64,000 nt of DNA, taken from the NCBI GenBank assembly GCA_020348445.1, contig CP070751.1:4070164-4134163 (forward strand). The letters are read 5' to 3'. Under the pieces are notes generated by a model. It was not told the origin of the DNA and did no database searches. It saw only the letters and a program-made list of their open reading frames with translations. The position numbers and the translations under genes were made by a program. This document shows positions 12,773 to 57,549 of this stretch, in pieces. The DNA comes from Thermoplasmata archaeon (GTDB lineage Archaea; Thermoplasmatota; Thermoplasmata; GCA-020350865). Every line of letters begins with the position of its first letter. The first letter of the stretch is position 1.

Positions 12773-13216
12773 GGGGCCGCCGAGCCCTGAGGTTTAAGAA
12801 ACAATTATTTTACATTTATAACCGAAGGGCCAAGGCTAATAAGAAGATTCAATTGCCGAGCCATTAAGCTTAAGACATAATTGAATTAGAATTATAACTT
12901 AATGGCAAGGCAACTAAGAAATTTGAATTGTCGGGTCTTTCAGCTTAAGAACCGATTTTTATGTAATTATAACTGAAAGACAAGGCTATGTATAAATGGG
13001 GCCGCCGAGCCCTGAGGATTAAGACACCATTGTATTACAATTATAACCGAGGGGCCAAGGCGTATAAAATGGGGCGGTCGAGTCTTTCAGCTTAAGAACC
13101 AATTCTTATATAATTATAACTGAAAGACAAGGCTATGTATAAATGGGGCCGCCGAGCCCTGAGGATTAAGACACCATTGTATTACAATTATAACCGAGGG
13201 GCCAAGGCGGCCCCAC
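12773..13216. repeat. Tandem array of six 57-58 bp hairpin units (period 73-76 bp) abutting the tRNA-Pro 3' end
   Basis: Units start at 12779, 12855, 12930, 13004, 13077 and 13151. Consensus GYCGR-[9-nt arm]-nTTAAGA-N15-wTTATAA-[complementary arm]-(C)AAGGC. 12964-13061 is identical to 13111-13208. Confidence 0.92.
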
Positions 13217-13241
13217 GTATTAATTTAATATAAAATTTAAG

Positions 13242-13371
13242 TGGGGCCGCCGAGATTTGAACTCGGGTATCCAGCATTTCGTATCATTTTCGAAACCGAG
13301 TTATTTTCCGGGAACTCGGTACTCAACGAAACCCCAAGCTGAGAGGATTGTCCAAGCTACCCTACGGCCCC
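13242..13371 (-). tRNA. tRNA-Pro(GGG) with a 55-nt intron at 37/38 (intron 13277-13331)
   Basis: Reverse complement folds as GGGGCCG/CGGCCCC-A acceptor stem, D-loop AGCTTGGACA, anticodon stem TCAGC/GCTGG with loop TT-GGG-G|T, T-arm CCGAG-TTCAAAT-CTCGG. Relaxed bulge-helix-bulge at the intron ends. Confidence 0.9.
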
Positions 13372-25081: not shown

Positions 25082-25307
25082 GGGCCCGTAGCTCAGCTAG
25101 GTAGAATATTATGATAAAATGGAAAAGTGTGAGCCATGAATATATTCCTAGAAAGAGCATCTGGCTTTTAACTGAACAATCTGGCGGTATAGAAAGTAGT
25201 AAGGACTAACAGCCGAGACCGGGTTTTTCGGCAGGAAACCAGGTGGTCGGGGGTTCGAAAAGTCTCGCCCCGATTGGAGCGGGAACTCGAAATTCCCCTC
25301 GGGCCCG
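25082..25307 (+). tRNA. tRNA-Lys(UUU) with three introns: 25103-25153 (20/21), 25171-25237 (37/38), 25260-25293 (59/60)
   Basis: Removing the three segments gives a 74-nt cloverleaf: GGGCCCG TA GCTC AGCTAGGTA GAGC A TCTGG CTTTTAA CCAGG TGGTC GGGGG TTCGAAT CCCCT CGGGCCC G. BHB-type structures at all three junctions. Confidence 0.88.
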
Positions 25308-25448
25308 TTTCCAAAATTCGCTGAGACGAAAGGACATGTGGTAGGAAAAGGTGTGGTGAGAAAATAGAAGTATGGTTTTGAAAAAGAGTCATGATAACAA
25401 GATTGAAAAAACGTGGGCAGATCGATTACAAAAATAGGGGGCTTGCTA

Positions 25449-56235: not shown

Positions 56236-56886
56236 ATGAAGATATTTTTGGATACCGCCAATGTCGAGCATATTAGAGAGGCCAACAGCTGGGGAATCAT
56301 AGACGGAGTTACCACTAATCCCACACTCATTGCCAAGGAGGGAAGGGATTTTCGTGAGGTAGTAAAAGAGATATGCGAAATCGTTGACGGTCCCATTTCA
56401 GCAGAAGTTGTGAGCATGAAATCCGATGAAATGGTGCCGGAAGCTCAGGATCTTGTCAAGATTCACAAGAATATCATAATCAAGGTTCCCATGATGCCTG
56501 AGGGTTTGAAAACCATCAAAAGATTGAAGGAGCTGAACATCAAGACAAATGCCACATTGGTGTTTTCCCCGAACCAGGCTCTTTTGGCTGCCAAGGCGGG
56601 AGCAACTTATGTCAGTCCATTTATTGGAAGGCTCGACGACATCGGGCATGTGGGTATGGACATAATAAGGGATATTATGATAATATTTGAGAATTACAAA
56701 TTCGAGACCCAGGTGATAGTGGCCAGCATCAGACATCCCATTCATGTTATCGATGCTGCAATTGCGGGAGCGCATGTTGCCACTGTTCCCTGGCCTGTTT
56801 TGCAGAAGATGGTCAAGCATTCTCTTACCGATGTAGGTATTCAGAGATTTTTAGATGATTGGGAGAAGGTGCCGAAGTCGAAGTAA
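56236..56886 (+). CDS. tal: Transaldolase / fructose-6-phosphate aldolase family protein
   Basis: IFLDTAN, GVTTNP.LI, IKVP (Schiff-base Lys), [18 protein letters not shown]. Confidence 0.92.
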
Positions 56887-57053
56887 AAAAACAGCAGCCA
56901 GTCATGTAAATTCTTGATTTTAAATAACACCATATTGTGTCTTCTACTCAATGCCCTCCTCCTAACCCTCTCCACCCGCCCTATGTTTTTCCATAAAGAT
57001 AGATTTGTTCTTAAACAGATAGTGATAACGCTAATTTTTATAGCACAGTACTC

Positions 57054-57324
57054 CTTTAGCCCCTCAGTGGTAAAGCTGAGGTAGCTAAGCCAGGTGGCTC
57101 GTGGTCTCCCTTTGGTCGCCCACTACACCTATCTGGTCCGCTGATACAATGCCTTGGTGGTCCAGCTAGGTCCCCGTGTGACCTTCGTTCCCCACTCGCC
57201 CTGGGCTTATCTCCCTCTATGCTATAATTCGCTTAATGCTGAGGTAGATAAGCCAGATCCCGTGGTGACCTTCGGTCTCCACTTACCCTGGGCTTATCTC
57301 CCTCTATGCTATACGTCACTCAAA
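57054..57324 (+). repeat. Three degenerate 76-87 bp units upstream of tRNA-Ser, each containing a 20-nt tRNA 5'-end copy
   Basis: tRNA-like 20-mers at 57075 (19/20 to the tRNA-Ser 5' end), 57151 (13/20) and 57238 (17/20). 28-bp exact repeat CCCTGGGCTTATCTCCCTCTATGCTATA at 57199 and 57286. Confidence 0.85.
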
Positions 57325-57435
57325 GCCGAGGTAGCTAAGCCAGGCTTAAGGCGGCAGGCTCGAGCGTTTTCCTAAGGAAAACCAAGGAACCTGTTGGTGC
57401 TTTGCACCGCGGGAGTTCGAATCTCCCCCTCGGCG
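57325..57435 (+). tRNA. tRNA-Ser(CGA) with a 24-nt intron at 37/38 (57365-57388)
   Basis: GCCGAGG/CCTCGGC-G acceptor; anticodon stem GCAGG/CCTGT with loop CT-CGA-G|A; long variable arm TGGTGC-TTT-GCACCG; T-arm GGGAG-TTCGAAT-CTCCC; intron hairpin GTTTTCC/GGAAAAC with BHB-like junctions. Confidence 0.92.
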
Positions 57436-57458: not shown

Positions 57459-57549
57459 GCCGAGGGTTTAAAGTGATGTTAATTTATAGGAGATTCAAGC
57501 CAGTTACCGTAAGCGAAGCGAATGGTGACGGTGGTTCGAATCTCCCCCT
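57459..57549 (+). repeat. Hairpin ending in a 16-bp duplicate of the tRNA-Ser T-arm/3' segment
   Basis: GTTCGAATCTCCCCCT at 57415-57430 and 57534-57549; stem GGAGATTCAAGCCA/TGGTTCGAATCTCC; GCCGAGGG at 57459 is the inverted copy of the tRNA 3' strand. Confidence 0.8.

Follow-up and report, generated by a model that had tools for sequence, protein, structure and literature searches.

Hairpin-bearing units with partial tRNA copies at tRNA-Ser(CGA) and other tRNA genes of an archaeal genome

Results

The tRNA-Ser(CGA) locus and its upstream array

The window, by which we mean the whole 64,000-nt stretch of DNA analysed here (G000:C1:4070164-4134163), belongs to the 5.16-Mb genome (G000) of an uncultured Thermoplasmata archaeon, assembled as a single contig with a G+C content of 41.5%, and the DNA runs that contain it are sediment metagenomes. 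An Rfam search identified one tRNA at the locus, which ARAGORN in its default mode did not call. We read this match as a tRNA-Ser(CGA) gene with a mature length of 87 nt and an intron of 24 nt in the anticodon loop, the limits of which (57365-57388) were read off the sequence. The transaldolase-like gene upstream adjoins this tRNA only within the genus, as determined by a synteny search. The features of the locus, together with three T-loop insert loci elsewhere in the genome, are collected in Table 1.

Table 1. Positions of the features of the tRNA-Ser(CGA) locus (window coordinates) and of the T-loop insert loci (genome coordinates)
Feature	Position	Strand	Score or evidence
TTTTTATA box, likely promoter for the entire array and the tRNA	57035-57042	+	sequence; CTAATTTTTATAGC conserved in G002 and G003
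Weak antisense arm 0, basal leader	57054-57068	+	score 14 against 9.5 ± 2.0 for shuffles, p = 0.04
Fragment 1 (tRNA nt 1-20 copy), same sequence as the tRNA-Ser(UGA) 5' end	57075-57094	+	
Hairpin 1, degenerate CGTGG..CCAC, orthologue of the sole hairpin of G002	57100-57123	+	
Arm 1 (57128-57141), spacer (57142-57150) and fragment 2 (57151-57170), tRNA-Ser(GGA)-type block	57128-57170	+	
Hairpin 2, partly decayed	57175-57195	+	hairpin model R1, 11.6 bits
Arm 2 (57200-57217), spacer (57218-57237) and fragment 3 (57238-57257)	57200-57257	+	
Hairpin 3, consensus CGTGG..CCAC	57261-57282	+	30.6 bits, E 2e-6, with a hairpin model built from other loci; alignment A1
Arm 3 (57287-57304) and spacer 3 (proximal leader)	57287-57324	+	
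tRNA-Ser(CGA) gene with 24-nt intron	57325-57435	+	Rfam RF00005, 38.9 bits
Downstream mirror module: acceptor 5'-strand copy, AT-rich stretch, T-arm antisense, hairpin, tRNA 3'-end copy	57459-57549	+	repeat D3, inverted repeat I4
T-loop insert locus	G000:C1:2879725-2879848 (L145:126-251)		
T-loop insert locus	G000:C1:~668230-668300 (L122)		
T-loop insert locus	G000:C1:~5100340-5100410 (L146)		

Upstream of the gene are three copies of tRNA nt 1-20, the second of them divergent, which are spaced at 76, 87 and 87 nt up to the tRNA itself. A CGTGG..CCAC hairpin begins 3-5 nt behind each of these 5' fragments, and ahead of each fragment is a stretch that is antisense to approximately nt 4-20. A repeat search of the array returned a tandem unit of 87 nt and a family of 23 nt with three copies; across their 87 nt, units 2 and 3 share 77% identity and a core of 27 nt that is exact. 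The length of the unit equals that of the mature tRNA both here and at tRNA-Ser(UGA), which we take as a coincidence given that other loci differ. An earlier note, prepared from the sequence of the window alone, had described the fragments, their spacing and the hairpin spacers, and all of its coordinates hold.

The same note had proposed that each arm tracks the sequence of the fragment that follows it, and shuffle tests bear this out for two arms. Arm 57128-57141 fits the following fragment with a score of 16 (p = 0.007, compared with p = 0.57 for the preceding fragment) and arm 57200-57217 with a score of 23 (p < 0.001, compared with p = 0.9), whereas arm 0 is weak and arm 57287-57304 fits both of its neighbours. 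Where neighbouring fragments differ strongly, in the window and in a tRNA-Thr(UGU) array elsewhere in the genome, the arm fits the following fragment with p values of 0.000-0.018 and the preceding one with p values of 0.57-1.0. Arm, spacer and following fragment move together between arrays. A stretch similar to arm 0 is also present in the congeners G002 and G003. The palindrome of the arm extends in tRNA-Ala arrays through the linkers beside the preceding hairpin, and the basic object, judged from these sequences, seems to be a palindrome of fragment, hairpin and arm.

The region folds better than shuffled sequences on both strands (z = -4.3 and -4.8). Given that the two strands fold equally well, the symmetry is one of palindromic DNA, and an RNA fold is not thereby shown. 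The fold prediction pairs the last arm with fragment 3, which acts as a decoy, and leaves the tRNA free; a sequestered tRNA is therefore not what would be expected as the ground state. The prediction goes against the leader that sequesters the tRNA, one of the readings of the earlier note.

The TTTTTATA box is the likely promoter of the array plus the tRNA, a function assigned from the sequence. CTAATTTTTATAGC is conserved in G002 and G003 at an equal distance from the first fragment or the tRNA, and in the comparison of congeners the TTTTTATAGC box at tRNA-Ser(CGA) always adjoins the first fragment or the tRNA. The array contains no T-run of more than 3 nt, and no well-placed TATA is found at the proximal copy. 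The array is thus probably co-transcribed with tRNA-Ser(CGA) as a long leader from the distal promoter, and the previously proposed leader of about 260 nt, counted from the TTTTTATA box, is plausible on these grounds. Arm 0 would then probably lie for the most part upstream of the transcription start. An internal TATA-like box behind each hairpin was also considered; it fits some loci (Lys, Ala, Ser-GGA), but not the tRNA-Ser(CGA) array.

Downstream of the gene is a mirror module, the design of which also occurs behind other Ser tRNAs and their orthologues, with compensated inner stems that are conserved in G000 to G004. Elsewhere in the window, positions 12966-13090 and 13241-13371 of the minus strand comprise a tRNA with an intron, for which the ARAGORN call of Phe is doubtful, together with a module behind it. 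In this module, which is of the downstream type, a duplicate of approximately the last 12 nt of the tRNA comes after an antisense stretch.

With regard to the assembly, a contig from an independent sample matches positions 56500-57191 exactly. Logan contigs of four DNA runs stop inside exact repeats and leave 57192-57411 unbridged, and for this exact-repeat part the support is the single-contig assembly. A joint at 57095/57190 in run X2 is most plausibly the paralogous tRNA-Ser(UGA) locus aligned to the window.

Mosaic origin of the blocks

A search of the tRNAs of the genome for the 57151 piece gave no match within 3 mismatches. It is closest to the 5' ends and fragments of tRNA-Ser(GGA) (15-16 of 20 positions), with the host tRNA at 13 and all others at no more than 13 of 20. 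For the arm and spacer of the same block, an independent comparison gave the Ser(GGA) arrays of G000 and G003 as the best matches, and the supposition that this piece derives from another tRNA is therefore upheld. The origin of this diverged unit was missed by blastn-short and was detected by ranking of identities. Fragments 1 and 3 are both closer to tRNA-Ser(UGA) than to the host tRNA-Ser(CGA); taken with the 11 nt preceding it, fragment 3 resembles the start of the tRNA-Ser(UGA) gene, a likeness that covers the second half of spacer 57218-57237 (ATTCGCTTAAT). By sequence comparison, then, the array is a mosaic in which block 57128-57170 traces back to an array of the tRNA-Ser(GGA) type and fragments 1 and 3 are of the tRNA-Ser(UGA) type.

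A Ser-like block also lies inside a tRNA-Thr array. Non-cognate blocks were found only inside arrays and never adjoining the gene body, as would be expected if the proximal copy must serve as the 5' end of the tRNA.

Turnover between congeners

The number of units differs between orthologous tRNA genes of congeners. At tRNA-Ser(CGA), which shares its upstream gene among the genomes compared, comparison of the congeners gave three units in G000, one in G002 and none in G003 or G001. tRNA-Ser(GGA) has three units in G000, one in G003 and none in G002 or G004; tRNA-Ser(UGA) has one in G000 and none in G004 or G001; and tRNA-Thr(UGU) has two in G000 and one in G001. In the last case the difference between the two genomes is one clean period of 79 nt directly after the fragment, with the remaining DNA approximately 81-90% identical. 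In the single Ser(CGA) unit of G002 the duplicated piece reaches as far as nt 24, immediately ahead of the D-stem's 3' strand.

Units have therefore been either gained or lost between congeners, and frequent deletion between direct repeats could mimic a gain. Repeated insertion or duplication at the 5' end of the tRNA, one of the readings of the earlier note, is borne out by these differences in unit number and by a promoter that stays beside the distal fragment. Another of its readings, a regulatory leader that sequesters the tRNA, fares worse: in G001 and G003 this gene has no units, and the arms, in the Thr(UGU) comparison, carry species-specific mismatches against an unchanged tRNA side in place of compensated pairing. 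From these sequences, a conserved regulatory leader at tRNA-Ser(CGA) appears unlikely.

The tRNA-Ala arrays persist in G000, G001 and G003 with perfectly conserved fragments, and one orthologous compensatory change was found in a hairpin, with A:T in G000 versus G:C in G001 and G002. These two observations hint at constraint rather than junk. In G005, which belongs to another family of the same order, tRNA-Ser(CGA) (L008, G005:C168:1-1942) is accompanied by an inverted copy of nt 1-20 that is perfect at 20 of 20 positions; the copy lies ten nt upstream of the gene, behind a different type of hairpin, and repeats of approximately 150 nt follow. The perfection of this copy suggests that arms arise by copying and not through slow evolution.

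A genome-wide family at tRNA loci

About 20 of the roughly 48 chromosomal tRNA genes of G000 carry fragment, hairpin and arm upstream. The 20 loci have 1-3 units each and comprise three Ser, two Thr, three Ala, four Leu and four Gln genes, one each for Lys, Tyr and Phe, and one that is Leu- or Pro-like; two tRNA-Glu genes have decayed versions. More than 35 units are present in the genome at these and any further loci, which number at least 20. For Ser(UGA), Thr(UGU), Phe, Ala and Thr(CGU), the modules, upstream and downstream, were re-derived in the genome. Only at genes with units does the proximal leader contain an antisense arm (scores of 12-26, compared with 10.1 ± 2.7 for the cross-control). 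No hairpin unit was found at any of the approximately 22 tRNAs that are packed into 3 kb of the minus strand at G000:C1:4640570-4643566, a dense cluster that may be of viral or mobile-element origin.

The covariance search for the spacer hairpin (model R1), a check put forward in the earlier note, returned 15 matches in G000 at E < 0.01, all of them at tRNA loci and most of them training sequences. Matches outside the training set occur in G001 (at least six), G002, G003, G005 and two genomes of another family, and those inspected adjoin tRNA genes on the 5' or 3' side. Across the class, hairpin matches were obtained in at least 7 of the 151 members searched, under strict filters and with 50 candidates scored per genome. 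The family thus exists and occurs only at tRNA loci. Rfam contains no family other than tRNA that matches any unit, word searches of the literature found no description of such units, and the family is apparently both fast-changing and undescribed.

The hairpin loops are often of the UUCG or GNRA type, and the inner pairs covary, with 17 double changes compared with 6.2 ± 2.1, a count that is biased by the choice of instances for their pairing. Units of tRNA-Ala and tRNA-Gln are able to form a full acceptor-like stem of 6-7 bp. The duplicated stretch ranges from approximately 13 to 65 nt across units, the Phe unit containing an exact repeat of 65 nt, and no terminal inverted repeats were seen. 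Readings of the hairpin as a C/D-box, H/ACA or k-turn element fit single loci only and were rejected on sequence. At the Leu loci L125-L128 and at L129 the leader units are longer (111-183 nt), with two or three further conserved hairpins between fragment and arm and no match in Rfam.

The arrays were also considered as parts of a split tRNA. A complete tRNA follows the array, fragment copies occur nowhere outside tRNA 5' ends and no partner 3' pieces for the 5' fragments were found, and this candidate was rejected.

Link to tRNA introns

An insert of approximately 47 nt with the CGTGG..CCAC hairpin is present at one and the same T-loop site in tRNA-Glu(UUC), in a tRNA-Gly that tRNA finders missed and in a displaced 3'-end copy. 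Its GCC/CCC lead-in is the same as that of the cassette hairpin, as we term the hairpin of the units, so that cassettes and this intron-like insert have a hairpin motif in common. In the predicted fold of the tRNA-Gly, the T-stem is followed by a 3-nt bulge, a 5-bp helix, a 2-nt bulge and an inner helix, an arrangement like a bulge-helix-bulge, and the modelled insert is in this respect intron-like. G004 and G002 share the T-loop insert.

A tRNA-Lys(UUU) at 25083-25311 (+) of the window, missed by default ARAGORN and by the Rfam gathering threshold, apparently has three introns, in the D-arm, the anticodon loop and the T-loop. The cassette break point at nt 20-24 falls in the region of the D-arm intron of this tRNA, a coincidence with the break in the D-loop that the earlier note had rightly pointed out.

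The leader units themselves do not qualify as archaeal bulge-helix-bulge introns. The motif is absent, the loops beside the hairpin facing each other rather than standing 4 bp apart, and the arm is followed by a spacer and a whole tRNA instead of exon 2. A reading in which the distal fragment serves as exon 1 of a giant or nested intron was rejected as well, given that the ends of such an intron would be identical, not complementary, to the end of the exon.

Search for an associated enzyme

A search of the genome revealed no transposase, recombinase or nuclease that could be linked to the cassettes, and neither Cas1 nor a reverse transcriptase was found. The single GIY-YIG match is a frame of 523 aa that is probably a repair protein. 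An IS200-type element of 661 bp that encodes only a Y1 transposase is present in two identical copies (G000:C1:2860309-2860969 and 3338969-3339629), one of which adjoins a masked N stretch. Its end hairpins are unrelated to the cassette, and derivation of the latter from IS200/IS605 elements (PATE-like) was rejected; none of the five Y1 transposase genes has an R1 match nearby. The cassettes resemble MITEs in being short, gene-less repeats with many copies and with presence and absence differences (0-3 units at orthologous loci), but they have no terminal inverted repeats, no fixed target-site duplication and no known transposase. No kb-sized autonomous form consisting of fragment, gene and intact tRNA was found within 8 kb of any tRNA. 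Assignment to the class of att-site duplications was rejected too: direct repeats are present, but the intervals of 57-67 nt are gene-less, and there is no fragment copy at a distance of 0.6-8 kb from any tRNA.

Discussion

We consider it, on balance, probable that non-coding hairpin cassettes colonise the ends of tRNA genes, regenerate the gene and then spread by duplication and by exchange between loci. A period is made up of the conserved CGTGG..CCAC hairpin, the 5' part of the tRNA in inverted form, a spacer that resembles a leader and, as a direct copy, nt 1 to approximately 20-24. Each new period would land directly behind an existing 5' piece and itself end in a 5' piece, so that the copy beside the gene body would always be the working 5' end, whereas older 5' pieces would be displaced upstream and remain at the original promoter. 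On the D-loop side the cassette would thus come with a duplication of the leader and of nt 1-20/24, the gene being rebuilt downstream and the old 5' piece becoming part of the leader; in loops where the splicing motif forms, it would act as an intron. Arrays would subsequently grow, shrink and swap periods through additions, deletion between direct repeats and exchange between tRNA loci. The arms might form, for instance, by hairpin-primed fold-back synthesis or template switching. Each arm would be neutralised in the transcript by a decoy fragment so that the tRNA can fold, and RNase P would remove the co-transcribed array. We infer that the DNA of the cassettes is selfish or duplicative and that they are hairpin mini-elements related to the mobile introns of archaeal tRNA genes. 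The tailoring of arm and fragment to about 20 different tRNAs is unexplained by this reading.

A version that we regard as very doubtful makes the arm a guide: the cassette or its transcript would pair with the first 20 bases of the tRNA, insert and rebuild the gene, and a variant invokes tRNA-like minihelix RNAs that RNase P and RNase Z would cut from the units and that would act in their own right. If the guide version were true, the cassette would be a mobile element that has no genes, tailors itself, bears a guide and is related to archaeal tRNA introns.

The units could also be functional RNA, either structured pre-tRNA leaders or tRNA-like minihelix RNAs, which would be processed by RNase P and RNase Z and would steer tRNA folding or maturation or act alone. 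Loops of the UUCG or GNRA type with covarying inner pairs, the acceptor-like stems available to tRNA-Ala and tRNA-Gln units, the tRNA-Ala arrays kept with exact fragments in three genomes (G000, G001 and G003), folding far better than that of shuffles and a balance between the numbers of arms and decoy fragments all speak for such a function. We nevertheless think it unlikely, given that the same tRNA gene is without units in congeners, that arm mismatches differ by species against an unchanged tRNA side, that both DNA strands fold equally well, that the first arm is probably upstream of the transcription start and that non-cognate units are tolerated in arrays.

The 77% identity of units 2 and 3 and their exact 27-nt core are features that local tandem duplication, by slippage or unequal crossing-over, would produce, and combined with gene conversion among paralogous tRNA genes such duplication would require no mobile element. 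Direct repeats promote expansion and deletion alike, and the exchange of blocks among Ser arrays could be gene conversion bounded by the common hairpins. What this account leaves unexplained, however, is the recurrence of one hairpin motif with a local inverted copy at about 20 unrelated tRNAs, in 3' modules and in T-loops, together with the Ser-like block in a tRNA-Thr array, and we therefore hold it to be quite unlikely. Highly improbable, in our estimate, are scars of serial integration and excision by integrase-type viruses or plasmids with an att site over the 5' part of the tRNA. The tRNA-Thr of Caldiarchaeum subterraneum, in which the break is at nt 24-27 as here, provides a precedent for them (PMC3293823), but the intervals in our arrays are 57-67 nt long and gene-less, no fragment-gene-tRNA arrangement occurs within 8 kb of any tRNA and integration does not make inverted copies. 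Each of about 20 tRNAs would moreover need an element of its own, all of them reduced to the same hairpin.

It is because of the cassettes that genes in these genomes are overlooked or mis-called by tRNA finders. Mobile cassettes would be a new kind of tRNA-targeting mini-element, one that might connect intron gain with gene fragmentation and partial gene duplication; should the cassettes be functional instead, long pre-tRNA leaders with decoys would add a new layer to tRNA maturation.

tRNA genes are classic landing sites of archaeal viruses and plasmids, and in archaea they are often broken by introns or split. Split or permuted archaeal tRNA genes are found in Nanoarchaeum, Caldivirga and Thermofilum. 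As in these, the tRNA pieces of the cassettes adjoin sequences that are complementary to a partner, whereas in contrast to split tRNAs a complete gene is present, there are no orphan 3' pieces and the arm is antisense to the fragment itself rather than to the flank of a partner. Mobile ('transposing') bulge-helix-bulge introns were reportedly found in tRNA genes of Thermoproteales by Fujishima et al. in 2010. The resemblance to them lies in related short inserts at equivalent places of different tRNA genes and in the presence of the cassette hairpin also in a T-loop insert whose fold is like that of a bulge-helix-bulge intron; the leader units differ from them in lacking the motif and in being bypassed by duplication, not by splicing.

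Small hairpin repeats are represented by bacterial repeats of the REP/MITE type and by mitochondrial double-hairpin elements. Repetitive hairpin-forming elements also exist in sponge mitochondria (PMC2800124). Like the REP/MITE repeats, the double-hairpin elements and the sponge elements, the cassettes are gene-less, are tens of bases long with one or two hairpins, multiply and turn over fast. Those elements keep their own sequence wherever they lie, whereas cassettes partly carry the sequence of the neighbouring tRNA and occur only at tRNA genes.

The nearest published case is that of a kb-sized recombinase element which displaced a 5' fragment of tRNA-Thr in Caldiarchaeum (PMC3293823). In the tRNA-Thr-F/tRNA-Thr-II pair of C. 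subterraneum, 1.8 kb of DNA with a recombinase gene separates the restored gene from the 5' fragment (nt 1-27) upstream of it (Sugahara et al. 2012, PMC3293823). There, as in our arrays, a 5' piece that ends in the D-arm is left upstream on the side of the old promoter, an intact gene follows the insert and the state is polymorphic between close relatives. The Caldiarchaeum insert, however, is 1.8 kb in length, codes for a recombinase, is found a single time and comes without an inverted copy, whereas the cassettes are approximately 60 nt in length and gene-less, have a conserved hairpin and an antisense arm, are stacked and reach about half of the tRNA genes. In this lineage the cassettes are a compact and abundant intermediate, in which the local tRNA is copied in both orientations, the gene stays intact and the units turn over between species.
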